Sequence record: NZ_CP018188.1
Reading direction: 5' to 3' (one strand)
From: a plasmid
Length of the DNA: 64,000 bases
This document shows, piece by piece, positions 5,422-61,352 of this stretch (the stretch's first letter is position 1; each line of letters begins with the position of its first letter). A model generated the notes under the pieces. It made no database searches. It was not told the DNA's origin and saw only the letters and a list, made by a program, of their open reading frames with translations. Position numbers and translations under genes: made by a program.

Positions 5422-6969
5422 CTAAAACTGAATGTTAAGCTTTCCACAATGGGCTAAAAATTGTTCTGCTTCTTTCTTTGCCTCTTCATCTGCGGATTTG
5501 TTCCTTTCTCCTTTCAGTTGAATGATCCTATTGTTTTTCAATTCAAGAGTATAGAGAGGGGTTTCTCTGTCAGTTTTATCACGAACAAAGACAATAATAG
5601 AAGTTCCGTAGACAAAGTGTTTTTTTGCATAACTTCCAACACAATGATGTAGGGTTTTGCCTTCTTTGACAATTTCACTTTCGTCTTTAGGAAAGATAAA
5701 AGCATACTTGTCAAATGCGGTCTGAGCCTTCATCATGTTTGTCAAACGTTTAGCTGTTTCAATCTTCAACTTCGCCTCTTTCTTTTCGTCCTCAAGGCGT
5801 TGTTTCTCTTCTCTCAAATCTCTGACAGCATTAGTTACACGTAAATATGTACCACGTGCTTGTTGATTCTCGAGAAGAGCTGAATAATTTTCTACGACCT
5901 CTGTATGTTTGTTTTCCCAATTTTTTGGGATAACTACATAATCTCCATCAAATGGAATTCCCAGAGCTTCTACCATTTCTTGATAGTCCTCATAATCACG
6001 AAGGGAGATATTGTTTTTCATCATCCAGTTAATAAAACGAATTGGTTTCACAGTGGATGGTATGATACTTTCCAAACGCTTAATTAGTGGCTTCTTGTCA
6101 GAAATCATAGCGTTTATAATCAACTCATATAACCCCTCGAAGGTTCGACCATATCGTCTACGCAAATCTTCCTCGAAAAATGCCTTTTCAACATTTATAT
6201 CCGTATTTTTTAGATACGGTTTATTCCTTTTAAGAAAGTTCATGGTAGCCTTCCCCATATTTGTATGCTTGTGCCCAAGACTATATGAGTAATATGATCT
6301 ATAAAACGTAGACCCTACCAAATCTTTGACGATTCCACGCGCCTTGATTTTTTGAGCGAATTCAATACGCTCTCTATATTTATAAAGATGAGGTAGCACT
6401 AAGCTTATCTCAAAATTATCTTTAATCACTTGTCCAAAATCTAAATATCTCAACTCAGACTTTGTTTGTAATTTCTGAATAAGACTTTCCATATCCCCAT
6501 AAAGCGTATAGACACTAAATGCACCAGAACCAAAAAAGAGAGCATTCCTCTGATTTTGGAATCCACTTCTATAGATATCTTTACCTTTTTGGGCTGAAAG
6601 AAATGGATCCCGGTGTGCTTTAACAATCTTATTGTTGGCAAGCTGATAAAAGTTGTAAAGTCTGACTTTGAACTTTTCTTTTCCTTTTTCGAAGGATTGA
6701 GTCACAGAATACATCTGCATTTCAATGCGTTTCTTTGTGACTCCCATCCAGACATAGTAAAAAGTATCACCTACAAAGGTTAAACGGCTGTTAAGTGATA
6801 AGCGTTTTGTAACCTTTTTCGAAAATTTTTTTCGGTCTGAAGAGATAATTGTCCTGGACTTATTAGTCCATTCATAGATAGGAAAATCATTCATCGCCCA
6901 CTTGAAAAATCCGTTAGGAACTTTTAGACGATTGTCAACGATTTCTTGAATAGTCATTTCTTTTGTCAT
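5422..6969 (-). CDS. PcfJ-like conjugative-plasmid protein
   Basis: 515-aa ORF with ribosome-binding site GGAGAAAAACAATG. The C-terminal region (KEGKTLHHCVGSYAKKHFVYGTSIIVFVRD...) resembles the PcfJ domain of pCF10-type conjugative plasmids. Confidence 0.55.
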   Translation of the reverse strand: MTKEMTIQEIVDNRLKVPNGFFKWAMNDFPIYEWTNKSRTIISSDRKKFSKKVTKRLSLNSRLTFVGDTFYYVWMGVTKKRIEMQMYSVTQSFEKGKEKFKVRLYNFYQLANNKIVKAHRDPFLSAQKGKDIYRSGFQNQRNALFFGSGAFSVYTLYGDMESLIQKLQTKSELRYLDFGQVIKDNFEISLVLPHLYKYRERIEFAQKIKARGIVKDLVGSTFYRSYYSYSLGHKHTNMGKATMNFLKRNKPYLKNTDINVEKAFFEEDLRRRYGRTFEGLYELIINAMISDKKPLIKRLESIIPSTVKPIRFINWMMKNNISLRDYEDYQEMVEALGIPFDGDYVVIPKNWENKHTEVVENYSALLENQQARGTYLRVTNAVRDLREEKQRLEDEKKEAKLKIETAKRLTNMMKAQTAFDKYAFIFPKDESEIVKEGKTLHHCVGSYAKKHFVYGTSIIVFVRDKTDRETPLYTLELKNNRIIQLKGERNKSADEEAKKEAEQFLAHCGKLNIQF

Positions 6970-7027: not shown

Positions 7028-7597
7028 TTAAAATTCCCCTTCTTCAATAGATAAATCTGAAAAAAGATCTAACTGTTCCCCAACCTCTTTAGGCATTTTC
7101 TTTGTTTTTGGGGTCTTTTTAGTCTGTTTCTTTTTAGGCTTCTTGGTTGATTCTTTGCTACCAGTAGTCATTTTACCTACTACTGATTTAGTCTCAACTT
7201 TAGGGGTTTTCTTTTTAGTTTGGCTCTTCTTTTTTGGATTTTTTGTTGGTTTCTTACTACCAGTAGACATCCTACCAAAAACAGAACCTATTTCTACTTC
7301 TTCCGCAGTAAAATACTCCTTAACCCAAGAAAAGACCGTATCATCATCAACCATGGCCCCTTGACCATTTTTATAGTCAGATTTACTGGCTTTTCTGATG
7401 CAGTAACGCATAGCATTCTTAATCGTACGATCAAGGTGTGTGAGGATTCCAGAAATCAGCTCATCATCCTCTTGATGATCAACTATCCAATTATGAATAG
7501 CATCCTCAGTCGGGGTGTGAGCTTCTGCCATTTCATCATCAAAATGGCTTACTGCCATGAAGCGGTCAAAAGCATCAATCTTAATTTTATCTGTCAT
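7028..7597 (-). CDS. Lys-rich tandem-repeat protein with C-terminal QLDLF (beta-clamp-binding-like) motif
   Basis: 189-aa ORF. It has two tandem repeats, GRMSTGSKKPTKNPKKK and GKMTTGSKESTKKPKKK, giving a histone-H1-like basic region. The C-terminus is ...GEQLDLFSDLSIEEGEF. Confidence 0.5.
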   Translation of the reverse strand: MTDKIKIDAFDRFMAVSHFDDEMAEAHTPTEDAIHNWIVDHQEDDELISGILTHLDRTIKNAMRYCIRKASKSDYKNGQGAMVDDDTVFSWVKEYFTAEEVEIGSVFGRMSTGSKKPTKNPKKKSQTKKKTPKVETKSVVGKMTTGSKESTKKPKKKQTKKTPKTKKMPKEVGEQLDLFSDLSIEEGEF

Positions 7598-7612: not shown

Positions 7613-8413
7613 TTATTTAACTAAAGCTACGTTTCGTTTCCCATCTTGTCCTTGTTTCATTTCTAAAACATCATGTGGGATTAAAAAGTCATCTTGATAG
7701 GCTGTTGTAACGACACTTAATCCTGCAGCAACAGCCTTAAGTACTGCTTCTACTTCTTCTTGTGTATTAGCTTCACCGATAAACAAGACATTAGGATTAA
7801 AGCGTGGGACTAAAGTGACCAGAGCATCATAGTCCATACGGTTAACCTCATTGACTTGTAGCTGGCCAAAAGATACATCCTTAATTTCGACATGTCTTTC
7901 AATTGTCATTACTTGCCCTTCTTTAAAAGCTTCAGCAAGTATCAAGTAGGCTAAAGTCGTTTTACCAACACCTGGACAACCAGTAATGACGTGTAAGCCC
8001 GGAATGCGTACTTGTTCAAGTACGTTTTCCAAGCTACTATCAAAATCAAAGTCACGCAAAGAAACTCGATGCTCATCCCCATTGATACAATCTAATAGTC
8101 GTATAGCCATCGTTTCTAGACCTCGAAAATCGCCTACCGTTGATATCTTGATGGTGATAACTCTACCATCATCCAACGGATAGTCACAAGTACCTAGTTG
8201 CCCACGCCGTTTTTCGATTACAATCATATCAGCCATAACTTTTATATGATTAAATAGAACATCCGCATCTTCTGATGAAATGTGGTCATAGACCTGTTTG
8301 ACACCAGCTTTTCTAAATGCTACCTCGTATTCTTCACCATGTGGGAAGAAGGTAATATCTTGGATATTGTTATCGATAGCTTTTTTAAAAGCCTGTTTAA
8401 TGTAAGTAATCAT
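7613..8413 (-). CDS. compact GspE/PilT/VirB11-superfamily secretion ATPase
   Basis: Internal start MITYIKQ follows the ribosome-binding site GAGGAGAAAAACAATG. The layout is typical of T2SS-E/PilT N-terminal and Walker A regions: ...DDGRVITIKISTVGDFRGLETMAIRLL...IPGLHVITGCPGVGKTT...ERHVEI...GQLQVNE...VLFIGEANT. Confidence 0.55.
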   Translation of the reverse strand: MITYIKQAFKKAIDNNIQDITFFPHGEEYEVAFRKAGVKQVYDHISSEDADVLFNHIKVMADMIVIEKRRGQLGTCDYPLDDGRVITIKISTVGDFRGLETMAIRLLDCINGDEHRVSLRDFDFDSSLENVLEQVRIPGLHVITGCPGVGKTTLAYLILAEAFKEGQVMTIERHVEIKDVSFGQLQVNEVNRMDYDALVTLVPRFNPNVLFIGEANTQEEVEAVLKAVAAGLSVVTTAYQDDFLIPHDVLEMKQGQDGKRNVALVK

Positions 8414-8426
8414 TGTTTTTCTCCTC

Positions 8427-9890
8427 TCAGAACTCAAACAAGCTTAACTGCTCTCCTTCAGTCGTTGGTTTATCATCATGTGGCTTTCGACAAGCTACTA
8501 ATGCTTTTGGCACCTTCTCGACCTTATAAATTGGTTGCATAGCACGATAGTTCTCAAAGAACGTATCAAAAAATGCAAACAAAAGGTGTCGACATTGCCT
8601 TAAAGCCCTATACTCTAATCGAGTATAGTAAGTTGCTTCATCAGATAGCAATTCTGAATCCTTGGTATAAGTTTCAAAAACCCACCATTCAAAGCCACGT
8701 GCAAACACCTCGGTTGGTGTCAAATAATAGTCCAACTTCTTCTTAATGTGAACAGCTTGAGCTAAGTCCGTTCTGGTTTCCTCAGCTATTTGAATTAACT
8801 TCAGCAAGCTAGCCTTGTAGATATGACGAATATCTTTAAAGCTATGTGATGTAGAACTAATGATCCCAGCTTTATCATACGTATAGTCTAAATAATGTCC
8901 ATACTCATGTATGAATGATGAGGAATCTCTTACATCAACTGCCATGATATTTAATCCAGGCACATAAAGTCCGCTTGCTTTATGTTTTCCTAGCTTTCGG
9001 AATTTGAGTTCTGGCTCTACAGCCGAATGAGGTAAGTGATTACACAACTTCTCCCATTCCTTCTCTAGAACCTTGAATTTCTCCTTGTTAAAATCACTAC
9101 CTCGATAACGCTCAGTATCAACTTCAACTTTCGAAAACCCTAAATCAAGAAATGACGTGTTACTGTTCATTTCATAATCTTGAAAGATTTTATCCTCACG
9201 CACACTAGCTATCGTCTTAGTTGACTGATTAACATATTGTGCATTGAGGTTGGCTGCAAGTGCATCTTCATACTCTCTTTTAAGGACGTTAGCTATTTTT
9301 TGGATATTTCCATAATAACTACATTCCTTGTAGATACCTTCACTATGGATAGACATCAATTCAAGAAAGCTAAAAGATACTAGTCCATACCTCGTTTGAG
9401 AGCTACTCTCTCTCCAAAAATTTAGGTTTTTCTTCAACGGTACTCTAACCTTTGAATCGTCAATAATGAGAAGATACAAGGTTCGTTTGGTATCTTCTGC
9501 ACTTTTAGTAGCAGGTAATCTACTTCCATGTAGTGTGAGAAGAATCTGTTCACCAAAGAGGTGTTCTTTATTTTCTTCATCTCTCAAATTCATACCCTCG
9601 AACAGTCTTTTTAGTTTATTCGAAAAATGAGCTTGATCATAACCAATGGTTTCAATATCAGCCATAATGTCTTTGACTTTGTAGGCTGTATAGACATTTT
9701 CCTGTCCGAATACCTCTACTGCTAGTGCTCCGACTTCTTGAGATAAAAGTTCCTGACAGTGATATCTGCGAATATTCGCATAATAAGTACAAAACTTTCT
9801 CACGATATCGCAAGCTTTATCAGTCTCTTTTATCTTGGGAAAAGTGACTTTTTTAGCAGTTTTTTGTGCTACTGTTAGTAAATTGGTCAT
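8427..9890 (-). CDS. HExxH zinc-metallopeptidase-domain protein (ArdC/SprT-like) with C-terminal QLSLF motif
   Basis: 487-aa ORF with a HEYGHYLD (HExxH) motif. The C-terminus is ...TTEGEQLSLFEF. Ribosome-binding site GGAGAAAAAACAATG. Confidence 0.5.
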   Translation of the reverse strand: MTNLLTVAQKTAKKVTFPKIKETDKACDIVRKFCTYYANIRRYHCQELLSQEVGALAVEVFGQENVYTAYKVKDIMADIETIGYDQAHFSNKLKRLFEGMNLRDEENKEHLFGEQILLTLHGSRLPATKSAEDTKRTLYLLIIDDSKVRVPLKKNLNFWRESSSQTRYGLVSFSFLELMSIHSEGIYKECSYYGNIQKIANVLKREYEDALAANLNAQYVNQSTKTIASVREDKIFQDYEMNSNTSFLDLGFSKVEVDTERYRGSDFNKEKFKVLEKEWEKLCNHLPHSAVEPELKFRKLGKHKASGLYVPGLNIMAVDVRDSSSFIHEYGHYLDYTYDKAGIISSTSHSFKDIRHIYKASLLKLIQIAEETRTDLAQAVHIKKKLDYYLTPTEVFARGFEWWVFETYTKDSELLSDEATYYTRLEYRALRQCRHLLFAFFDTFFENYRAMQPIYKVEKVPKALVACRKPHDDKPTTEGEQLSLFEF

Positions 9891-9910: not shown

Positions 9911-9949
9911 AAAAAGGAAGGTTAGCTCAAAGCTAATACCTTCCTCTTT
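9911..9949 (-). terminator. rho-independent terminator / attenuator between RelA-SpoT-like gene and metallopeptidase gene
   Basis: AAAAAGGAAGGTTAGCTCAAAGCTAATACCTTCCTCTTT forms a long hairpin. On the minus strand a T-run follows it. Confidence 0.5.
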
Positions 9950-10027
9950 CTCTTATATGTATTATGTACGATACACTATGCACTATACATATTATGATGT
10001 GCTATTTATCGCGTAAAAAAAGGAAAC

Positions 10028-10630
10028 CTAATTATTGTTATCAAGTTTCCTTGCGAAATCTCGTTTATGGCGTTTGTGACTCTCTATATTTCGAGAAATA
10101 TCATTCTTATCCCAGATTTGTAATTCCCAAGGATAAGAAAAATTACTTCCGTTTTTGAAATAGACATAGATACCAGTGTAGTCTTCTGTATCCTTTAAAT
10201 ACCAATTTTTAAGACCGTATTCTTCCTTCCAATCATCTAAACGATTCACCACTTCAGTAATGACAGATGTTGGCAAAATGACACGTGCTCCAAAAATATC
10301 ATTTAAAACTGAATTTACTGGATACCCTTCGGGTCTTTTAGTAAAATGCTCAATCTTATCTAAAATAGATTCAGATGTTTTCACTCGATAGAAGTAACTA
10401 ATATCGCTGACATCTGCTACCATCAAATAATCGTTGATTGACTCGTGCAGATTCAAACGATATTTTAGAATCTCATCAACTGGCACCTTAACAAAAGTGT
10501 GCTTAAGATTAACTTTAGCAAGTTTACCACTTTCAAAATACTCTTCTGAGTACTTTTTATGAATGGTGTTGATTTCAGAGATCAGTCGCTCTACTTTATT
10601 GATATCTGTCACAAGCTTATACTTCTCCAT
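10028..10630 (-). CDS. RelA/SpoT-domain nucleotidyltransferase (small alarmone synthetase-like; toxSAS candidate)
   Basis: 200-aa ORF. Motifs FYRVKTSESILDKIEHFTKRP and NDIFGARVIL (D-x-x-G-x-R-[IV]) are present. A divergent ELQIW occupies the position of the EIQIRT motif of (p)ppGpp-synthetase-fold enzymes. Confidence 0.5.
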   Translation of the reverse strand: MEKYKLVTDINKVERLISEINTIHKKYSEEYFESGKLAKVNLKHTFVKVPVDEILKYRLNLHESINDYLMVADVSDISYFYRVKTSESILDKIEHFTKRPEGYPVNSVLNDIFGARVILPTSVITEVVNRLDDWKEEYGLKNWYLKDTEDYTGIYVYFKNGSNFSYPWELQIWDKNDISRNIESHKRHKRDFARKLDNNN

Positions 10631-10662
10631 ATTTTTTCTCCATTATACCATAACCCTTTTTG

Positions 10663-11991
10663 CTACAGGTTATAGGTCTTAAATCTAATTTTTTCTTCTG
10701 GGGAAGCTTTTAAAAGAAAATCATCGATTCCCTTTTCGTGAGGCCAGATTAGAGCACGAACTGTACAAGACTGCTTAGTGACTAGATCTTTAACCATGTC
10801 ATACATACGTTCAAATACCGAGTCATTATCCTCAAAGTCTTGGTCAAATGCAAGATAAATTGGTTTAACCTTTTTGAGTTCAGTCTTTCCGATAAAGTCC
10901 GAGATAGGACGCCATGCTGCTACTCCTGCCATAGAAATAACACAGATGCTACCCAGTTGTGAGAGACGAGTGTTTTTCGCAACCGATGCGGTGATATCCC
11001 CTTTAAGCAGACCTTCAGTAACTAGAAGGTTATCAACCTTACTCATAAGATTGACTTTAGCCTTACCTTCATCAGAAAAGCGTGCTAGTTCTAAAATATC
11101 ATCTGAATAAGCAAAATGTGGAAAGGACTTAGCACTTGTTCCCTCTGGCTTATATGCTGATGATACAAAGACATATTTTTGTCCTTTTTTAAAAGTCAAC
11201 TCAAGTCCAGAACAAAACTTAACACTAGTTTCCTTAGTTGTCCCACTTGCTAGTTCATGTGATGAACCTTTAGCAAACACATACCAATTGAAGGTCCCAT
11301 CGTCATTTTGGAAGACCTTAGCAGTACGTGCATTTCGTCCCTCTTGAAAGCCTTCATTAACTTTAGCTTGATAACTAACGTTATCAAGACGTACTTGAAA
11401 GCCTACAATTTGTCCCCATGAATTGCGACATGGAATTAGGATTCCATCTTTTGATTCAAAAATAGGACATTTTGCGTTTTCGTTCCAGTAGAAGCCAGGA
11501 ACTCCACGCCATGCATCTTTAGGAAGGCCATTTGCAACAAAAAGCTTTTCCCAAATAGTTGCAGGATGAGATACTGTAGTATCAACCTGCTTCTGCCGTG
11601 TCTCTTTTGTCGATGAAGCATATCCACGTAAGGCAATAGTCTCAACAGAAAGACCTCGTTCTGCACTTGTTAAGTGCTTGACATGGTCCTTAGTCAATCC
11701 TAACACATCAATCACAAGAGAGTTCACCTTGTGAAGTGTTGAGATACTTGCCAAGGGCTGACTTTTCCAACTTGGTTCAAAAGTCACCTTTCTGGCTTTA
11801 TTTTTGTCCAATTCATAGATCGTCCCAGCACTACCAAATTGTGGTTTGTCTGGGTCAATCTTTCTAGCACAGACTGCCTTAGTCTGATCTGCAAAAACCA
11901 GACACCAATCTGGTTTTCCACAAATAGGACAAGGGTAATCACGTCCTACGCGAATTAATTCTTGATTTCCAATTGTGATTAGTTTAGTCAT
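10663..11991 (-). CDS. zinc-finger/TOPRIM primase-like protein
   Basis: 442-aa ORF. N-terminal CPICGKPDWC...C zinc-binding motif. C-terminal TOPRIM-like residues LVTEG...IYLAFDQDFEDND. Ribosome-binding site AAAGGAGAAAAAATG. Confidence 0.5.
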   Translation of the reverse strand: MTKLITIGNQELIRVGRDYPCPICGKPDWCLVFADQTKAVCARKIDPDKPQFGSAGTIYELDKNKARKVTFEPSWKSQPLASISTLHKVNSLVIDVLGLTKDHVKHLTSAERGLSVETIALRGYASSTKETRQKQVDTTVSHPATIWEKLFVANGLPKDAWRGVPGFYWNENAKCPIFESKDGILIPCRNSWGQIVGFQVRLDNVSYQAKVNEGFQEGRNARTAKVFQNDDGTFNWYVFAKGSSHELASGTTKETSVKFCSGLELTFKKGQKYVFVSSAYKPEGTSAKSFPHFAYSDDILELARFSDEGKAKVNLMSKVDNLLVTEGLLKGDITASVAKNTRLSQLGSICVISMAGVAAWRPISDFIGKTELKKVKPIYLAFDQDFEDNDSVFERMYDMVKDLVTKQSCTVRALIWPHEKGIDDFLLKASPEEKIRFKTYNL

Positions 11992-12549: not shown

Positions 12550-13740
12550 AATTAACATTACAAGTTTATCGTTATTCGGATAATAACTTTATATACTGCT
12601 CTCAATTATATTTTTCAATACATTATATATAGCACATGATACATAGCCCATAGTTTACTACACACTATGTATCGTTTGATGGACATAATAAAATAGAGAA
12701 ACAACCCTTTCTTAGTAAAGCTTATACAAGATACAATGTTAAACTATGTATCTTATATCGTGGGCTATTCGAATCAGCCTTTTACTAATTTCTTAATTAC
12801 CTTAAGATGAATAGAATAAAAATAATGTTATATAGTTTTTAAATGTATCGTTCACTATACATAGTGGATAATCCACTATATACTATAGAACTATAGAATA
12901 TATATTATCTACAATACATTATGTATCGCTTTTTCGACTATGATAAGATAGGGAGCAATCTTCACTAGAATATACAAGATACATTATTAAACTATGTATC
13001 TTGTATCGTAGGCTATTCAAACCAAACCTTTTACTAATTTCTCAAATGTCTTAAGATGAATAGAATAATAGTCATATATAGTTTTTCTATGTATCGTTCA
13101 CAATACATCGTAGATTATCCAATATATACTATAAATATATATAATATATATATTTTACAATACATAATGTATCGGGTATTATACAACCTATGGAACATGC
13201 GAATAATTCAAATATATACGATACATTTTTATCTATCTATAGTACATTGATAATATTTATATCGTCTACGATACACTATTAAGTGTGTACGATTCTATAG
13301 TACACTATATGTAGATATACTATGTATATTATATAGTGTAATGTCTCCTGACAAATTATACTTAGTCCGTGAGATAACTAGCAGGTTTTATGTAAACTAT
13401 TTATCTCTACAATATACATAGTATATAATAAAACAGTACATCGTCTTCAATGTATTACCTTTAGGTATATATTGTATCGTGTATTATATATCACTCTAGT
13501 CAAGATTTTATTCTATGTAGTATGATTTCTTTTGACTAGCATATAGTGAACGATACACTATGTATAAGCTATTTTGGAAATAGAGTTATCCACTATGTAC
13601 TATACATAGTTTATCTTGTATTGTTTACGATATATCTTACATACTACTTGATATTAGATTTCTATATGGTATACTTTAAGTAGTTAATTATATGTATCGT
13701 TTTATTATACATAGTGTATCGTATATCGGATTGAAAGGAG
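12550..13740. repeat. AT-rich repeat region upstream of parA: two tandem ~250-bp direct repeats (about 12712-12960 and 12961-13210) plus many short (G/A)ATACATCG / TGTATCG half-sites; candidate centromere (parS-like) / regulatory array
   Basis: Direct alignment of 12722-12895 with 12971-13140. The motifs ATGTATCG and CGATACA recur about 15 or more times on both strands. No convincing ORF (13056..13250 is a repeat artefact). Confidence 0.55.
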
Positions 13741-23104: not shown

Positions 23105-24946
23105 ATGAAATTTAGTTTTTATCAAGTTGCTCAACGTTTCTCAATTCGTAAGTATTCTTTTGGTGCTGCTTCTGTGCTTTTAGGGGTTTTCCTACTTTCT
23201 GGTGTACAGACTGCTCATGCTGATGAGAAAGTGGCTGTTTCTGAATCAACTACAAATATTACTAGCGATAATGGAGTTGTATCAGATAAAGTAACTTCTT
23301 CAAACGCTGAGATTGTTCTTTCTGAAGCTACTGTTTCAGTTCCAAAGGAAAGTTTGGCACCTGCAGAAGCACCCTCAAGTGCTGTGACACCAGAAAAGAC
23401 AAGTGAGAGCTCTAAGCATGTTGAAACAGTTACTGCGGATGAAACTCACAAAGTTGAAAATACTTCAGAACCAATATCAACAGTAGAAGAAAAGGTTAAC
23501 GTAGCGACAAATACTGATAAGGTATCTGATAAAAAAGTTACTACTCCAAACATTCCAAATGAGCCAAATAAAAAAATTGAGTCGGAGGTACATGAAGATA
23601 AGGAGACTGAAAAAGCAACTGTAACAGAGAAAATTTCTGAACCAAAAGTTCCTGAAATTATAACAGATAATAACTCATCAACACCAAGCACTGGTTATTC
23701 GAGGTTATTTAGTGTTGGAAATATTAGACGACCTTTGTCTAATAATTCTAGAATCGGTGATGACTATCCAGTGGCTTGGCGTAATAATCCGGAGGAATGG
23801 GATAGCTGGGGTTATGCAACTGCTTATTGTACTTCCTTTGTTGCTAATAGACTCTACCAAGTTAATAAATTGGATACACCTAGAGGTTTAGGTCATGCTA
23901 GACAATGGGGTGGAAATGCAAGAAGTATGGGATATAGAGTTGATAATATTCCTACTAGAGGCTCTGTAGCATATTTGGACGATGGTCTTTATGGTCACGT
24001 TGCTTGGGTGTCAGCCGTCAAAGGTGATAATGTAGAAATCGAGGAGTATAACTATGGGTCAACCTATCGGTTCCGTTATCATAGTCGTGTGGTTCCCAAA
24101 AATTCATTCACTGGTTACATCCACTTTAAAGATTTAAAAAGTAGCAATACAAGTATCCCTGATACTCCAACACCAACAGATAATACAGGAAGTAATTTAG
24201 CTTCTTCAGGATTTTATCAATTTACAGAGAGAGTAAGCATTAAAGCTGAACCAAAAATGTCTGCCCCAGAACTTGCCTATTATGAAGCAGGAAATACTGT
24301 CAATTATGATAAAACACTCCAAGCAGACGGTTATGTCTGGATTTCTTATCTATCATATGCAGGAAACCGTCGCTATATTCCAGTACAAAAACTTTCAACG
24401 GAGGTAAAACCAGAGGTTAAAGGAACCATTAATGTTTTAAATAAGAATGACCAGTCAGGTACCTTTGATGTTGTGATTTCAAATGTTTCAAGTAATGTTG
24501 GACTAAAAGAAGTTCAAGTTCCAATCTGGTCAGCAAAAAATGGGCAAGATGATTTGAAATGGTATAAAGCTGTTAAACAATCTGATGGTACCTATAAGAC
24601 TTCTGTAAAAATCAGTGATCATAAGAATGACAGAGGAGAATATCTTATCCATCTCTATTATGTTACTGATAGTGGTAAACAAATTGGTGTAGGTGGGACA
24701 ACGACAACTGTAGAAAGTGCTTCAACTACATCTAATCCTTCTAAACCATCAATTCCTAATAGTGGTGTTTATACTTTCAAAGGCCATGCAAGTATCAAAG
24801 CAGAACCAAAGATTTCTGCACCTGAGTTGGCATATTATGATGCTGGAAATACAGTAAATTATGATACCCTTATTCAGGCAGATGGTCACTATTGGATTTC
24901 TTACTTATCATATTCAGGTGCTCGTCGTTATATTGCGATTAACTAA
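23105..24946 (+). CDS. secreted YSIRK-signal CHAP-domain peptidoglycan hydrolase with Bsp-like and SH3b-type C-terminal repeats
   Basis: YSIRK-G/S signal (FSIRKYSFGAASVLLG). CHAP Cys/His (ATAYCTSFVANR ... YGHVAWV). Two C-terminal ~50-aa repeats (SIKAEPK(M/I)SAPELAYY(E/D)AGNTVNYD...) and a GBS Bsp-like repeat (WYKAVKQSDGTYKTSVKISDHKNDRGEYLIHLYYV). Confidence 0.8.
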   Translation: MKFSFYQVAQRFSIRKYSFGAASVLLGVFLLSGVQTAHADEKVAVSESTTNITSDNGVVSDKVTSSNAEIVLSEATVSVPKESLAPAEAPSSAVTPEKTSESSKHVETVTADETHKVENTSEPISTVEEKVNVATNTDKVSDKKVTTPNIPNEPNKKIESEVHEDKETEKATVTEKISEPKVPEIITDNNSSTPSTGYSRLFSVGNIRRPLSNNSRIGDDYPVAWRNNPEEWDSWGYATAYCTSFVANRLYQVNKLDTPRGLGHARQWGGNARSMGYRVDNIPTRGSVAYLDDGLYGHVAWVSAVKGDNVEIEEYNYGSTYRFRYHSRVVPKNSFTGYIHFKDLKSSNTSIPDTPTPTDNTGSNLASSGFYQFTERVSIKAEPKMSAPELAYYEAGNTVNYDKTLQADGYVWISYLSYAGNRRYIPVQKLSTEVKPEVKGTINVLNKNDQSGTFDVVISNVSSNVGLKEVQVPIWSAKNGQDDLKWYKAVKQSDGTYKTSVKISDHKNDRGEYLIHLYYVTDSGKQIGVGGTTTTVESASTTSNPSKPSIPNSGVYTFKGHASIKAEPKISAPELAYYDAGNTVNYDTLIQADGHYWISYLSYSGARRYIAIN

Positions 24947-44787: not shown

Positions 44788-45636
44788 ATGATAGAAGAAG
44801 TAGCAATTCTACCTCCATTGACAGAGGATAATTACTACCAAGATAGGCATTACATGTCTACTTCTCGTTTTAAGGAGTACATCAAATGTCCCTTAAGGCA
44901 GGAAGTTGTTGACTTGGGCTTTTTGCCTGAGAAAACAGAGACAGAAAGCCTACTTGTTGGTAATTATGTTCATTCTTATTTTGAGAATAAAGAAGCTCAT
45001 GAAGCTTTCTTGGAAATGAATCAAGATAAGATCATAAGTCAACGAGGAAAAACCGCTGGCCAAGTAAAAGCCCCTTTCAAACAAGCAGATAAGATGATTG
45101 CTGCTTTAGAAAAAGAGGAGCTATTTAATCGTTTGTATCATGGTACAGATGATGAAATGGTGGAGAAAGAACGGATTATCACTGGTACGTTAGAAGGGAT
45201 TCCCTTCAAGTGCAAAATTGATAGTCTGAATCTTTCAGGCGGTTATTTCATAGACCTGAAAACGATGGAGAGTCTTCAGTCAGAAAAATATTCGACGACA
45301 CTTCATCGTTATACGAAGTCTCTTCTCTATAACATTGTAGAATATCAGTATACGCTACAAATGTACGTATATCAGGAGTTGCTGAAGCAAACCTACGGTT
45401 ATGAGTTTACACCTTATATTATGGCAGTTTCAAAAGAACCTGTTCCAGATAAGGAGTTAATTATGATTGATGATACTATCATTGAAATGGGGAGAGACAT
45501 CTTCTATGGGCATCTTGAAGTACTTAAAGATGCTTTAGCACATAAGTCTGTCGAAGGATGCGGTCACTGTGATTACTGTTTAACGAATAAGTCGTTGGTT
45601 ACAGCAAAAACAGTGGCAGAATTTTTACAACAATAA
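44788..45636 (+). CDS. PD-(D/E)xK-superfamily nuclease with C-terminal Cys cluster (Cas4/RecB-like exonuclease)
   Basis: IDLKTMESL (D-x-K). C-terminal GCGHCDYCLTNK Fe-S/Zn-type cysteines. Confidence 0.5.
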   Translation: MIEEVAILPPLTEDNYYQDRHYMSTSRFKEYIKCPLRQEVVDLGFLPEKTETESLLVGNYVHSYFENKEAHEAFLEMNQDKIISQRGKTAGQVKAPFKQADKMIAALEKEELFNRLYHGTDDEMVEKERIITGTLEGIPFKCKIDSLNLSGGYFIDLKTMESLQSEKYSTTLHRYTKSLLYNIVEYQYTLQMYVYQELLKQTYGYEFTPYIMAVSKEPVPDKELIMIDDTIIEMGRDIFYGHLEVLKDALAHKSVEGCGHCDYCLTNKSLVTAKTVAEFLQQ

Positions 45637-45690
45637 TAAATAGGAAATAAAGTGGTCTCTTGATCACTTTTTATAATTAAGGAGAAAACA

Positions 45691-46698
45691 ATGACTGTAA
45701 ATACTGAAACTATGGTAAATGAAATCATCGAGGCAAAGGTGGCTCTAGCTAAGGCTGAAATGCAACTAGAATGGCAAAAGGCTGATCAAGCTAAAAAAGA
45801 CCATTCTAAACAGGAGCCAGAGGTTATGGCTCCGCTGTTTGAAGCTTGGGCCAAGGCTCAAGCTGAGTTTGAGTCGGTAACTGCGACAAGTAGAGTCACG
45901 TTTAAGAACGTTGACTTTAAGTTCGCACCTCTATCAGAGATTTTAGGGGCTGTACGTCCAGCACTCAATAAGCATGGTCTAACTTTGACGCAGCAAACCA
46001 AACATATCCCGTTTGGTAATGCCAATGGACTCAAAGTTGTGACGACACTACTTCACGAAAGTGGTGCCTCTTACGCTATTGAGTCTGTTCCTGTGTTCTA
46101 CAATGTCAATGACATTAAGAACCTGGGAGCTCAGGTGACTTACCTGCGTCGATACGAGGTCAAAACGCTTCTTGGTATTGAGGCTGATAGCGAAGAACTA
46201 GATATGGACAATGTGCCAAATCATTCGCAATCAACACAAGAGACTGGTAATTATGGTAGTAATCATACTTATCAGTCAAATGCCCAGGCGAGAACACCTC
46301 GCAAACCAACGGGTGCTCGTTATGGGAAGTCAGCCAAGTCTGCGTCAGTTGCGTTTTCTTTGAGTAGCAGTGAACAGACATCACTAAGTGAGGTGACATC
46401 AGCTGCTAACAAAGTTGCAAGCGAGAGTGTATCACAGGCAACTAGTGAAGCTGAAGTAGCTACTCAAACGAGTGAAACAGCTACTCTAGAGCCAAAAGGG
46501 ACAAAGGCAAATGTTTGTAACGATGATCAACTGATTCAAATGGTTGCTCGTGGTGAAGAAGCGGCCATGTCTCTTGGAGCCACAGAAAGCCAGCTGCTTG
46601 AGTGGTCGGAACTAGGCGAAAGTAAAGGGTTGACTGTTCAACTCAAAGCTTTATCTGATTTTGTTGCCAAACAACGTCAACAAGCACAACAACAATAG
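45691..46698 (+). CDS. ERF-family single-strand annealing protein (recombinase)
   Basis: LFEAWAKAQAEFESV...FKFAPLSEILGAVRPALNKHGLTLTQQ matches the ERF N-terminal core. Low-complexity S/T/Q-rich C-terminus. Confidence 0.5.
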   Translation: MTVNTETMVNEIIEAKVALAKAEMQLEWQKADQAKKDHSKQEPEVMAPLFEAWAKAQAEFESVTATSRVTFKNVDFKFAPLSEILGAVRPALNKHGLTLTQQTKHIPFGNANGLKVVTTLLHESGASYAIESVPVFYNVNDIKNLGAQVTYLRRYEVKTLLGIEADSEELDMDNVPNHSQSTQETGNYGSNHTYQSNAQARTPRKPTGARYGKSAKSASVAFSLSSSEQTSLSEVTSAANKVASESVSQATSEAEVATQTSETATLEPKGTKANVCNDDQLIQMVARGEEAAMSLGATESQLLEWSELGESKGLTVQLKALSDFVAKQRQQAQQQ

Positions 46699-50050: not shown

Positions 50051-50167
50051 TTCACATCTATAAATAGTATATCGTGTAAGATACATCGTATACTGGATAT
50101 ATAAGAGAAAGAGGAAGGTAGTAATTCTAGGTTACACCTCCTCTTTTTTCTATGGAGGAGAAAAACA

Positions 50168-57698: not shown

Positions 57699-58742
57699 TT
57701 AGGCGACCAGAGGAACTGCTGGTCTGTTTGATAAATCTCTGCATTTAGCAGTTTTCAATGTTGCCAAAACGAAAGTTAAGAAGATGTTCCTTTTCTCCAT
57801 GTCGCTTTCTTTGGCGTAATTTACAAGGTTATTCCACACAAGATAGTTGTTCAGATACTTGGTAGAAACACCGTTAAAGCCACGCATAAACCTCTTTAGC
57901 TGGCTATGGTAGCTATTGATATGTTGGATATTATAAATGCCTTTCTTGGCTTTGCCAGTCTTTAACTGCACAAGGTCAATGCCATTGGCATTTGTAAATC
58001 TCACATAGGAGTTCATCTTGTCCGTAACAAGAGTGGAATTGGTCTTAATCCTACCATCATAAATATGATGTAAATCTCTTGTAGAAACTCTACCAGTATT
58101 CGTAATCTTGGAGATAGACAAGCCATTCCTATTAACCGCACAAGGAACACATACCTTTTCTTGGGACAAGCCTCTGATATGTGTAGAATGACCACGCTTA
58201 TGAGCCTTGCGTGGCATAGCAAATGTCTTACTCTTGCTATGATTGCCCTTGTACGAGATGGCGAAAAAAGTTTCGTCAGCCTCAATAATGCCGTCAAGGG
58301 TAACATCGTCTGCCATATTCTGAAGTGCATCCAAAATCTTGTGTCTCCAAAGGAATGCGGTGTTTCTGTGAATCCCACAAGCAACAGCAGTCTTACGAAT
58401 GGATAAGCCATTCATCATACAATCAATGTACTGCTCCCACACGGACAAGTCTTTTCTTGTACCAGACACAATGGAGTTCGTAGCAATCACGAAGGACTTG
58501 CCACAATCCTTACATACATATCGCTGTGTGCCATCTTTACGATGACCATTGCGAACCACATGGATACAGCCACAAAGAGGGCATACACGACCATTTGCAA
58601 AGCGTTCCTTTGCTACGAAATCTTCAATATTCAAAGACTTTACAAAGGCAGGACTTAAAAGCATTGTTTTAAGGCTTTCCTGCTCTGCGACAGTCAACTT
58701 ACCGATAATATCTAATGCGTCTTTGATAGTAGGCATATCCAA
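57699..58742 (-). CDS. IS1595-family transposase
   Basis: N-terminal zinc finger (CPLCGCIHVVRNGHRKDGTQRYVCKDCGKSF) and a DDE-type catalytic region. 347 aa. Confidence 0.85.
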   Translation of the reverse strand: MDMPTIKDALDIIGKLTVAEQESLKTMLLSPAFVKSLNIEDFVAKERFANGRVCPLCGCIHVVRNGHRKDGTQRYVCKDCGKSFVIATNSIVSGTRKDLSVWEQYIDCMMNGLSIRKTAVACGIHRNTAFLWRHKILDALQNMADDVTLDGIIEADETFFAISYKGNHSKSKTFAMPRKAHKRGHSTHIRGLSQEKVCVPCAVNRNGLSISKITNTGRVSTRDLHHIYDGRIKTNSTLVTDKMNSYVRFTNANGIDLVQLKTGKAKKGIYNIQHINSYHSQLKRFMRGFNGVSTKYLNNYLVWNNLVNYAKESDMEKRNIFLTFVLATLKTAKCRDLSNRPAVPLVA

Positions 58743-58821
58743 TTACCTCCTTCGGTGGTACTGTTTCTTACTATTATTATACGCTATTTCTCGTCAAAAT
58801 CAACCATTTGTTGTGACAGAG

Positions 58822-59643
58822 CCATTAAGAAAAAACATTCTTCAAATAGTGGAATATGCTAAAATAGTTGCTAAAATTCCAAATGTAATATTAATAACTA
58901 ATGGAACTATTTTTAATAAAAATATACTTTCAGAACTATCAAAATTTGTGGATACTGTTTCTGTTTCATTAGATACATACTGTTCGGATAGTGAACCATA
59001 TCTCAGAGATAAAGGAATATTTGACAAGATTATGCGGTCAATTTCTTGGTTAAAAGAATCGGGAAATAATGTCAATATTATTCCAACAATTCATCACTTG
59101 AATTCAAGTAATCTCCTTGAGTATGTAAAACTTGCAAAGGAAATAGGAACAACGATTAGTTTCAGTATTCTCAGTGCATGTTTTGAAGGCGAGTTAATGT
59201 CATATCTTCCCGATAACACTGATTTAATAAATATTAGTAAGTTTATGATTGAATCTGATGCACCAATCAATGATAGTGCCCTAGAGGATAAAACTTTAGT
59301 AGCTAGGAATTACTGTGGAGCTGGGACCTCAATGATTGCCATAGGCACTCAAGGTAATGTCTATCCGTGCCACATGTTGATGTATGATGAGTACTGTATA
59401 GGAAATATAAAGTACGATTCAATAAACAAGATGCGAGAGAAATCTGCTAATGCAAGGTTATTCAAATCATTGAATGTAGATAAAATAGAGGGTTGTTCAC
59501 AATGTCAATTCCGATATCTATGTGGAGGAGGCTGCAGAGCTCGTTCAAAATTGAAATTTGACGTAGTAGATAAAGTAGATCCATATTGTCGATTATTTAA
59601 AGCATACTATAATAAAGTTGCGGCGGAAATTATTTCTGATTAG
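58822..59643 (+). pseudogene. radical SAM/SPASM maturase gene, 3' part (SPASM domain)
   Basis: Continues the frame after the target-site duplication. Auxiliary-cluster cysteines are present (CGAGTSMIAIGTQGNVYPCHM ... CSQCQFRYLCGGGCRARS). The track ORF 58549.. is an artefactual upstream extension through the IS end. Confidence 0.7.
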
Positions 59644-59654
59644 GGAGAATGTCT

Positions 59655-61352
59655 ATGAAAAGGGTCTTAAGGGAAGAACGAAATAAAATAGTAGTATTTA
59701 TTATCTCTACGTTTATATTGGGATTAGTTGAAGTATCGTTTGCTACAATAATTCAAAAATTCATTGATTCCCTAGAGTCATCAGATATTACAAAGTTTAA
59801 ATTAGCAATTTTTTCCTTTACAGTTTTTCTTGTAGTAAACTATATCTTGAATCTTTTTGTAATATGGATTCAATCAGTGCTTACTAAGAATATTCATCTG
59901 TATTTAAAATCAAATTTAGCTAAATATTTTTTATCGCTTGGTTATTGTGATTTTTCTGAAACAACTACGGGTGAAAAGATGAATTGCTTTGATTATAAAA
60001 TATCGCTAATTGAACAGTATTTTTTAGATAGCATTTTTTCAATGATACAATCAACTTTGATGTTGATTATTGCGAGTGTTTATTTATATCAAATTAGCCC
60101 GTTGATTTGCATAATTGTATTTGCTTTAGGGATTGTATCTATGCTGGTTCCCTTGTTACTTGGTAAAAAATTAAATGATTTAGTTTCTGAAAATGTAGTT
60201 CTAAGCGGAGAGTATCTACATTTTATAAAAGAGATGTTTCAAGGAATACTGGCGGTCAAGACCTTTCAGAAGGAGCGGACATTTTTTGAGAAATTTGAAG
60301 AGAAGTTATTTAAATTTGAACAGAATGCTCAATTGTTAAATGTAAAAAATGGTGAGTATAATCAAATCAGTGGTTTTTTTCAGTATGTAATCATTATTTC
60401 TTGTTTATGCTTTGGTGGATTTTTAGTGTTGAATCAAGGCTTGACATTAGGAAAGATGATTGCGGTTACACAAATTTCAAATTTGATAGTTGGTCCAATT
60501 CAACAGATTGGTTCTTCAGTTATTGATATTTTGGCTAGTAAGGATATAACGAAAGAAATGTCAGATATTTTTTTAAAACAATCAATCGTTTTAGATAAAA
60601 AAGTATATCAAAAAGGTTTTGATAATATAAGGATTTCTACTTGTAGTGTCACAAAAGATAATAAAAAGCTCTTGGGTGGTGTTAATATATCTCTTGAATA
60701 TGGTAAAAAATATTGTATTATTGGTCCAAATGGTAGCGGAAAAACTACATTTGGACGATTAATGTTAAATTTGTTAAATGATGTTGAAGAACGAGTATTT
60801 ATAGATAGAGAAGCTAGTAATTTAGAAGATGTCGCCAAATTGATTTCATATGTACCGCAAAATAGTATTGCTTTTAAAGGTACTTTGAAAGATAATATTA
60901 CATTGTTTGAACGCTACGATGATAAAATTATTGATGAGGTAATTAGAGACGTTAATTTAAACAATAAAAGTAAAGAGATTCAAATGATTTCGGAAAACGG
61001 TGACAATATTTCTGGTGGAGAATTGAGAAAAGTCAATATAGCTAGAGCATTTTTAGAGGATAGACCAATAATACTAGTTGATGAATTTGAGTCAGCTCTG
61101 GATGAAGAATCATCAAAACTAATAGCTGATAAATTTTTGAGTTCAGAAAAAACGGTGATAATGATTTCTCACAATTTAGAGCAGTCATTTTTACAAAGGT
61201 TTGATTCCATAATTTTTATAGAAAATGGGGAAGTTACTGCAATGGGAAAATACGAAGTATTATTAAAAAATTGTGATAACTTCTATAAATATTTAATTCA
61301 AACTGCCCCTAGTGGAGGTAATATTCATGAATACAATACTACGAGCGTGTAA
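59655..61352 (+). CDS. ABC transporter, fused permease/ATP-binding protein (peptide exporter-type)
   Basis: Six N-terminal transmembrane helices. Walker A GPNGSGKTT, signature ISGGELRKVNIARAF, Walker B ILVDE. Confidence 0.75.
   Translation: MKRVLREERNKIVVFIISTFILGLVEVSFATIIQKFIDSLESSDITKFKLAIFSFTVFLVVNYILNLFVIWIQSVLTKNIHLYLKSNLAKYFLSLGYCDFSETTTGEKMNCFDYKISLIEQYFLDSIFSMIQSTLMLIIASVYLYQISPLICIIVFALGIVSMLVPLLLGKKLNDLVSENVVLSGEYLHFIKEMFQGILAVKTFQKERTFFEKFEEKLFKFEQNAQLLNVKNGEYNQISGFFQYVIIISCLCFGGFLVLNQGLTLGKMIAVTQISNLIVGPIQQIGSSVIDILASKDITKEMSDIFLKQSIVLDKKVYQKGFDNIRISTCSVTKDNKKLLGGVNISLEYGKKYCIIGPNGSGKTTFGRLMLNLLNDVEERVFIDREASNLEDVAKLISYVPQNSIAFKGTLKDNITLFERYDDKIIDEVIRDVNLNNKSKEIQMISENGDNISGGELRKVNIARAFLEDRPIILVDEFESALDEESSKLIADKFLSSEKTVIMISHNLEQSFLQRFDSIIFIENGEVTAMGKYEVLLKNCDNFYKYLIQTAPSGGNIHEYNTTSV

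Follow-up and report, generated by a model that had tools for sequence, protein, structure and literature searches.

A small RelA/SpoT-fold enzyme without an adjacent antitoxin, carried as an optional cassette in a streptococcal megaplasmid operon

Background

What does a lone gene for a small RelA/SpoT homologue (RSH) do in an operon of a streptococcal megaplasmid, and what keeps its product harmless? The question is raised by a 200-aa protein encoded in a stretch of 64,000 nucleotides of plasmid record NZ_CP018188.1, which we call the window. An initial annotation, made from the sequence without database searches, saw in it a relative of toxic small alarmone synthetases (toxSAS) and offered two explanations: an early-expressed effector of the incoming plasmid or an orphan toxin neutralised in trans or by the protein encoded downstream. 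We have followed up both by homology, structure and gene-neighbourhood searches. The best explanation of the findings as a whole is that the window RSH is an FpRel2-type enzyme, which would act by pyrophosphorylation as an antitoxin-free conflict gene; we give this reading about an even chance.

Results and discussion

An intact enzyme of a tightly conserved family

The window open reading frame (ORF) encodes an intact small RSH synthetase-fold enzyme that belongs to a tightly conserved family. All motifs named in the initial annotation are found in it (R82-V-K84-x3-S88-x3-K92, D111-I-F-G114-A-R116-V-I and E169-L-Q171-I-W173), and the ORF is real; its strand, which had not been given, is minus (Table 1). 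In databases the protein appears as 'GTP pyrophosphokinase (plasmid) [Streptococcus salivarius]', and the same allele is present on 10 contigs, the largest of 188 kb. The gene is an already annotated accessory gene, a member of a named but uncharacterised subfamily. Pfam family RelA_SpoT (PF04607) aligns with residues 82-173 (E 1.6e-4), its 22.3 bits being below the curated cut-off (GA 27). No NCBIfam model matches the protein, and a search of the Protein Data Bank (PDB) with the single window sequence returned only a chance match to CheA.

At E <= 1e-3 there are 854 homologues, most of them with a precomputed PF04607 match. Family members are ~186-200 aa long, share 59-71% identity across Streptococcus, Pasteurellaceae and Neisseria, and come from streptococci, Pasteurellaceae, Neisseriaceae, plasmids of Bacillus and Lactococcus, and streptococcal prophages and satellites. 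Two Neisseria gonorrhoeae records in the plasmid collection (NZ_CP119142.1 and NZ_CP119140.1, 2.17 Mb) hold a 57%-identical copy at which no gene is listed; it is probably a pseudogene or an unlisted chromosomal gene.

When a profile built from 27 members was compared with the whole PDB, the sole RSH match was FaRel2 (E 4.9e-7), a toxin that pyrophosphorylates tRNA at its 3'-CCA end. The AlphaFold2 model of the RSH protein (pLDDT 81.2) gave FaRel2 again as the top Foldseek match (8pu4, E 5.6e-7, TM-scores 0.48 and 0.58), followed by RelQ, RelP, Rel and Tas1, with a probability of 0.97-1.0 across all five. FaRel2 is the closest solved relative of the family. The synthetase fold proposed at the outset is thus confirmed by the Pfam and Foldseek matches, and the likeness to toxSAS by both profile and fold. 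The isoelectric point was tried as a discriminator and dropped: the window RSH has 6.6 (family median 7.8), and so has the FaRel2 core (6.6).

Residue roles were taken from the description of FaRel2 (PMC11782079) and mapped by profile alignment. R64, K66, S70, K74 and R77 of FaRel2 correspond to R82, K84, S88, K92 and R95 of the family, and D90, R95, Y128 and E145 to D111, R116, Y151 and E169. The equivalent residues are invariant or at least 98% conserved across 183 family sequences; judged by this alignment, the family keeps all ATP-donor, Mg2+ and G-loop residues of FaRel2. RxKxxxSxxxK, DxxGxR, the G-loop tyrosine and the beta5 ExQ are all present in the window allele. The initial annotation had regarded ELQIW as a divergent catalytic motif. 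This view does not hold, since ELQIW is invariant throughout the family, and because FaRel2 reads EIQF where classical enzymes have EIQIRT, we take it for the normal state of the clade.

Table 1. Features of the RSH gene and its surroundings (positions in the window, unless a residue or locus is given)
Feature	Position	Strand	Remarks
RSH ORF	10028..10630	minus	200 aa, ATG to stop; identical to WP_156247137.1
RSH donor site	R82, K84, S88, K92, H95 (family R), D111, R116	minus	from family alignment and FaRel2 mapping
RSH G-loop and further residues	Y151 (G-loop); also Y155 (family H), E169, Q171	minus	from family alignment and FaRel2 mapping
Spacer, DUF3854 stop codon to RSH start codon	10631..10662	minus	32 nt; 5' edge of the optional cassette
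DUF3854 (Toprim-like) gene	10663..11991	minus	442 aa, with zinc finger; first operon gene, upstream of RSH
HEYGH (HExxH) protein gene	8427..9890	minus	487 aa; weak match to LPD1 (polyvalent-protein domain); downstream of RSH
ComGA/T2SSE-like ATPase gene	7613..8437	minus	274 aa
PcfK-like protein gene	7028..7597	minus	annotated in sister plasmids as Cas9 inhibitor AcrIIA9 family
PcfJ gene	5422..6969	minus	distal part of operon
Terminator-like hairpin 1	10020..10052	minus	13-bp stem, 7-nt loop, then U7; overlaps RSH stop codon
Terminator-like hairpin 2	9911..9947	minus	GGAAGGU...ACCUUCC then U5; just 5' of the ribosome-binding site of the HExxH gene
Operator-like motif GTATCGT-N5-ATACA	9958..9974	minus	exact copy, between hairpins 1 and 2
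ERF gene	45691-46698		in the window; part of pLS20-like array
Fic neighbours of family members	L088 4760-5386; L089 1399-2001; also L011, L013, L065		numbered loci of the neighbourhood analysis

No cognate antitoxin in any genomic context examined

A scan of one genome per species yielded 300 genomes with a relative, of which the best 80 loci were analysed. With loci from S. mutans and Actinobacillus added, 86 loci entered the neighbour analysis, in which ORFs were clustered; phage and plasmid records were examined besides. No conserved neighbour of the RSH gene was found in the 86 loci or in these records. The genes that flank it on both sides in the 86 loci fall into at least 10 unrelated types, the flanking DNA is unrelated between contexts, and a library of 1.8 billion sequences yielded only relatives of ~200-230 aa, none with a fused domain. 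From the lack of a conserved partner we conclude that there is no cognate antitoxin and, taking the three observations together, that the family is autonomous. It is mobile as an ORF-only cassette. The family lacks the adjacent antitoxin that defines toxSAS toxin-antitoxin (TA) modules. In the window, too, no small ORF adjoins the RSH gene on the coding strand, just as the initial annotation had observed. A scan of window positions 4-16 kb against Rfam returned nothing at E up to 0.1, so that the gene has no known riboswitch or RNA antitoxin beside it.

Several individual neighbours were considered as partners. A 63-aa ORF upstream in S. mutans, a 67-aa ORF downstream in prophages of group B Streptococcus (GBS) and a Cys-rich protein upstream in B. 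thuringiensis were rejected as antitoxins, because none of them recurs in any other context or in the window. The streptomycin-adenylyltransferase-like ANT(6), directly upstream throughout the mitis group, and the DUF1232 protein, directly upstream in S. suis, are lineage-specific.

Among the contexts outside plasmids are the following. Firstly, in streptococcal chromosomes the position just before parC is always taken by RSH, as the final gene of a parE-parC island that is variable in mitis-group, suis, mutans and anginosus-group streptococci (loci L009-L086). The island contains Fic (PADLOC candidate PDC-S04), GNAT, DUF6261, AbiH and ANT(6) genes, a type IIG enzyme with specificity subunit, and a type II methylase/endonuclease pair; because of its restriction-modification, AbiH and Fic cargo it looks like a defence hotspot. 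Part of this island is also the 'ant-like gene' (PMC3323274) known in pneumococci as a marker of parE-parC mosaics derived from viridans streptococci.

Secondly, in Pasteurellaceae the gene is a single-gene insert in housekeeping operons, with gaps of -4 to +30 nt, arranged as tsaD-X-cyaY-recQ, rfbD-X-rfbC or metE-like-X-pepB (L006, L015-L018, L025, L042, L062, L080). A lone insert at nearly zero spacing in housekeeping operons is an unusual residence for a gene of a toxin clade. Pasteurellaceae, Neisseria and streptococci are all naturally transformable host groups.

Thirdly, the gene resides in phages. GBS prophages show the order cI-RSH-small ORF-int on one strand, with RSH starting one nucleotide after the CI-like repressor gene, and satellite phages the order repressor-X-RSH-Fic-integrase. 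PHROG 4012, whose function is unassigned, gives a match with E 6e-75. Fic-domain proteins are encoded at most ~2 kb from the RSH gene in four unrelated settings, namely the streptococcal island, satellite phage Javan292, S. danieliae and a 350-kb plasmid of B. thuringiensis (cluster c7, 26 loci). This proximity may reflect a functional link or merely shared defence cargo; no Fic motif was found in the window.

An optional cassette in the megaplasmid operon

In the window the gene is the second of an operon with the order DUF3854, RSH, HExxH/LPD1, ComGA-like ATPase, PcfK-like, PcfJ, hypothetical and SNF2-related, the last of which continues past the window start. The neighbours that the initial annotation called a primase-like and a metallopeptidase gene are present, upstream as a DUF3854/Toprim gene with zinc finger and downstream as the gene of the HEYGH protein. 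A ribosome-binding site (RBS) of the RSH gene, GGAG, is located at 10638-10641, 7 nt 5' of the ATG, and the same spacer also has an extended -10-like box, TGGTATAAT.

The megaplasmid of S. salivarius ATCC 25975 (NZ_CP015284.1) carries the same operon from DUF3854 to SNF2, with the HExxH gene and without RSH (L093 4383-7676). It lacks the 32-nt leader with the RBS, the RSH ORF and hairpin 1, and it keeps the operator-like motif and hairpin 2. The window RSH is accordingly an optional cassette of ~0.66 kb, consisting of RBS, ORF and its own terminator hairpin, in a conserved megaplasmid operon. Since ATCC 25975 has the operon without it, RSH is optional cargo and the HExxH gene is independent of it; hairpin 2, present with or without the RSH gene, is native to the operon.

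The initial annotation had placed one attenuator hairpin before the metallopeptidase gene. Hairpin structure does exist there, but it actually comprises two terminator-like hairpins (Table 1). The region with both of them folds far better than its shuffled versions (z = -6.5, with 0 of 200 shuffles equal) and is conserved in sister plasmids. The motif between the hairpins has 12 matches against 0.24 expected; about 10 of them lie at 12.8-13.6 kb, upstream of parA, and a further copy at 50069. An AT-rich repeat array upstream of parA (12600-13720) contains ACTATGTAT nine times against 0.7 expected. Array and motif together look like a shared operator or centromere-like site that joins partition and distal operon genes.

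These findings bear directly on the idea of an orphan toxSAS toxin that the HExxH protein encoded downstream, or another plasmid factor in trans, would neutralise. Such pairing was suggested by adjacency in the window and by Zn-peptidase/HTH (helix-turn-helix) antitoxin-type modules, the latter put forward in the initial annotation. In ATCC 25975, however, the HExxH gene is present without RSH; in every non-megaplasmid context examined RSH occurs without an HExxH neighbour; and the two genes are parted by two terminator-like hairpins and the operator-like site. The module idea is further weakened because it is this RSH-less plasmid in which an extra HTH regulator gene adjoins the HExxH gene, between it and the ATPase gene. 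We regard neutralisation by the HExxH protein as largely refuted and the orphan-toxin explanation as a whole as highly improbable.

Selection on the family and on the window allele

Between contexts dS is saturated while dN stays at 0.08-0.28 (omega ~0.03-0.15), which argues for strong purifying selection. Within the megaplasmid clade omega rises to 0.2-0.38. Compared with 182 other sequences, the window allele departs from the >=90% consensus at four sites, and three of these departures matter. None of 181 others has R95H, which lies at the equivalent of the FaRel2 triphosphate ligand R77; H155Y recurs in 4 of 182 and Y165S in one of 182. R95 is lost in four sampled megaplasmid alleles, to H in the window allele and P0284 and to C in P0001 and P0009, and R116S occurs once in this clade; outside it the polymorphic ATP-site positions are 94-98% invariant. 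The losses of R95 and R116 point to relaxed or attenuating selection on ATP binding, and the window allele (R95H, H155Y, Y165S) could be a hypomorph, a weak suggestion read from substitutions. Among the megaplasmid alleles compared (P0001, P0009, P0013, P0273, P0281, P0283, P0284), H155Y is linked with Y165S.

One may go further and suppose that the window copy no longer functions, its allele being inactivated or in decay. The three substitutions at 94-98% conserved positions, the recurrent changes of R95 and R116, the elevated omega of the megaplasmid clade and the Pfam score below cut-off all would fit. Yet the intact ORF has an RBS and a terminator, omega stays clearly under 1, the identical allele recurs on 10 contigs, and the catalytic residues D111, R116, Y151, E169 and Q171 are retained. 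We therefore hold decay to be very unlikely.

Assignment to FpRel2 and the probable acceptor

Atkinson et al. defined fpRel2 in 2011 as a subfamily of Firmicutes and beta-proteobacteria (PMC3153485), and the supplement of that paper names S. mutans, S. agalactiae 2603V/R and S. equi as carriers. In our searches S. mutans, S. agalactiae 2603V/R (in its prophage Javan5) and Neisseria also yielded the RSH family. Because the distributions match, we infer with strong confidence that the family is FpRel2 as named in that paper and by Jimmy et al. 2020. FpRel2 is likewise a single-domain RSH synthetase of ~190 aa (PMC3153485, PMC7229694); the window copy differs in being megaplasmid-borne, and toxSAS are generally not plasmid-localised according to Jimmy et al. 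(PMC7229694). FpRel2 stands outside the subfamilies reported with TA-like operons. In the literature searched it is rarely mentioned and has no function assigned, and our literature search on antitoxin-less toxSAS found nothing.

According to the preprint of Kurata et al., FpRel2, PhRel2 and FaRel2 form a supported monophyletic clade, and FaRel2 and PhRel2 pyrophosphorylate the CCA end of tRNA. By analogy with these two sister groups, the acceptor of FpRel2 would most likely be the tRNA CCA end as well, and a (pp)pNpp product would be less likely.

The family might instead consist of benign small alarmone synthetases whose low and regulated output of (p)ppGpp, pGpp or (pp)pApp tunes host physiology. 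Such a role agrees with the names given by PGAP and UniRef ('GTP pyrophosphokinase'), with the complete donor site and the G-loop tyrosine, with the toleration of a lone gene in housekeeping operons and with strong purifying selection. It is harder to reconcile with the PDB sequence match, which among RSHs is the tRNA-specific FaRel2 and not RelQ, RelP or Rel, with the fact that characterised members of the clade modify tRNA without alarmone synthesis, and with a patchy, mobile-element-linked distribution unlike that of a housekeeping regulator. Lemos et al. are said to have found in 2007 that the (p)ppGpp of S. mutans, a species also listed for fpRel2, comes from relA, relP and relQ, which disfavours a major (p)ppGpp role. 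On balance we consider benign alarmone synthesis unlikely.

Plasmid setting and the question of a leading region

The window comes from an S. salivarius megaplasmid. Its region is 89-94.5% identical to megaplasmids of S. salivarius and S. equinus of 126-237 kb. MOB typing classifies the sister megaplasmids as non-mobilizable, and a relaxase and type IV secretion system (T4SS) scan of ten large window ORFs gave only a weak Replic_Relax match and placed no origin of transfer (oriT). Plasmid pSAL813 has a pLS20-type array of ssb, ERF, JAB/RadC, Clp-ATPase, VirB2 and p028 family protein genes (72-94 kb). A pLS20-like array is common to the megaplasmids and the 86-kb S. equinus plasmids (p1_CNU_G6), the window part of it being 44788-46698. 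Despite their MOB-suite typing, the megaplasmids and S. equinus plasmids are probably conjugative; our literature search on transfer of S. salivarius megaplasmids found nothing. The 86-kb S. equinus plasmids carry an RSH homologue of 70% identity inside this array, after ssb-ERF-RadC-RelBE-LPD11 and before pLS20-like T4SS genes. In L. lactis RSH follows an FtsK/SpoIIIE gene.

The main idea of the initial annotation, an early-expressed effector with which the incoming plasmid counters recipient defences or takes over its host, has to be weighed against this setting. The enzyme might then pyrophosphorylate host tRNA or an immune signalling nucleotide. The operon shared with the AcrIIA9-family PcfK-like protein, PcfJ, the LPD1-like HExxH protein and SNF2 speaks for it, as do the position of the S. 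equinus homologue and the same T4SS-type array in the megaplasmids. Against it stand the optional nature of RSH in the operon and the scan and typing results given above, and such an effector makes little sense for homologues on a cI-to-int transcript, in a chromosomal defence island or in a housekeeping operon. Counter-defence has some plausibility in that the plasmid copies accompany establishment and polyvalent-protein-type genes; the occurrence of the family in cI-to-int operons, in chromosomal defence islands and within housekeeping operons fits better with a host-side role or one in defence. As an explanation of the window gene, an entry effector seems to us quite unlikely.

Other genes of these plasmids deserve a brief mention. 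Among NCBIfam models the operon ATPase best matches that of the competence pilus ATPase ComGA, its 162 bits falling short of the cut-off of 300, and pSAL813 has a Paratox gene (L094 37542-37724). With the ComGA-like ATPase, the AcrIIA9-family protein and Paratox, the plasmid may disturb the competence or the CRISPR system of its host. Further window cargo comprises a cell-wall hydrolase with YSIRK signal, CHAP, SH3_5 and Bsp repeats (23105-24946) and a radical-SAM/SPASM gene followed by an ABC transporter (58549-61352); the latter pair looks like a RiPP or bacteriocin-type cluster.

Comparison with known systems and a possible mechanism

FaRel2 of Coprobacillus sp. D7 (PDB 8pu1, 8pu3, 8pu4) is both the best sequence and the best fold match. 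Its size (206 aa) can be counted as the same as that of the family, and it shares the donor-site, Mg2+ and G-loop residues, the E-x-Q motif without the 'RT' of EIQIRT, and N-terminal helices before the core, where family K43/H44 align with the tRNA-binding K28/R29. Yet FaRel2 is highly toxic and always paired with ATfaRel2, an antitoxin that blocks the ATP site (PMC11782079), whereas the RSH family is partnerless and housekeeping operons tolerate it by itself. PhRel2 (B. subtilis la1a, Bacillus phages) and PhRel gp29 (mycobacteriophage Phrann) are prophage-borne small RSH toxins, like the family members in prophage lysogeny modules; gp29 has been implicated in excluding superinfecting phage, and PhRel2 is in the same reported clade as FpRel2 (Kurata et al. 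preprint). Both have adjacent cognate antitoxins, unlike the RSH family.

CapRelSJ46, a phage-triggered tRNA pyrophosphokinase and fused toxin-antitoxin, resembles the family in being a single polypeptide, prophage-associated and without a separate antitoxin gene. It possesses, however, a C-terminal pseudo-zinc-finger antitoxin/sensor domain, whereas the RSH protein is a bare domain of ~190 aa, and it falls into a different clade, CapRel+PhRel (Kurata et al. preprint). RelQ and RelP share the fold and ATP-donor motifs and are second-tier Foldseek matches. They differ in having no detectable sequence match with the family profile, in their EIQIRT motif and C-terminal tetramerisation bundle (PMC11782079), and in being core genes, not mobile cargo.

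We suggest the following mechanism for an FpRel2-type conflict gene, each step with moderate confidence. The enzyme would transfer the beta,gamma-pyrophosphate of ATP to the 3'-OH of an adenosine acceptor. The gene would be a self-contained conflict gene of mobile genetic elements (MGEs), its product serving as a phage- or MGE-exclusion effector made from the carrier's own operon. Restraint would lie in the enzyme itself, through inherently low activity, self-inhibition or the need for a trigger, and no dedicated antitoxin would be involved.

Several points weigh against this proposal. Identity to FaRel2 is merely ~25% and the TM-scores are modest. The name FpRel2 is based on distribution, not on the hidden Markov models of its authors. 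Because, according to the preprint of Kurata et al., no sequence signature tells tRNA-modifying from nucleotide-modifying small alarmone synthetases, the acceptor follows from clade membership alone. FaRel2 and PhRel2 are extremely potent toxins, and a relative tolerated without antitoxin in constitutive housekeeping operons may have a different, benign activity. On plasmids the gene accompanies anti-defence-type and establishment genes, which fits a counter-defence role equally. Finally, PADLOC has no model for the family and gives only a weak match to candidate PDC-S33, therefore RSH is not a catalogued defence gene.

A bolder form of the conflict-gene proposal can also be considered, doubtful as it is at present. 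FpRel2 would be an antitoxin-free, one-gene immune or counter-immune effector within the tRNA-pyrophosphorylating clade, under intramolecular or trigger-dependent control, and would spread as a promoter-less ORF-only cassette. The cassette would land at the 3' end of resident operons, such as prophage lysogeny modules, plasmid establishment regions, the parE-parC island and housekeeping operons of Pasteurellaceae. The ATP-site substitutions of the megaplasmid clade could then represent tuning of dosage or toxicity.

Conclusions

FpRel2 is an uncharacterised sister of two of the most potent translation-blocking toxins known, and it comes without an antitoxin. Streptococci of the mouth and airways, Pasteurellaceae and Neisseria commonly carry it, as do the prophages and plasmids of these bacteria. 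The S. salivarius megaplasmids, with their natural presence and absence of the gene and an allelic series at the ATP site, present ready-made test material. If intramolecular or trigger-dependent control is true, then it represents a new regulatory logic for toxSAS. To learn how FpRel2 stays harmless and what its substrate is would take our understanding of how toxSAS are controlled further than antitoxin binding, and might reveal a new one-gene function in phage exclusion or plasmid establishment.

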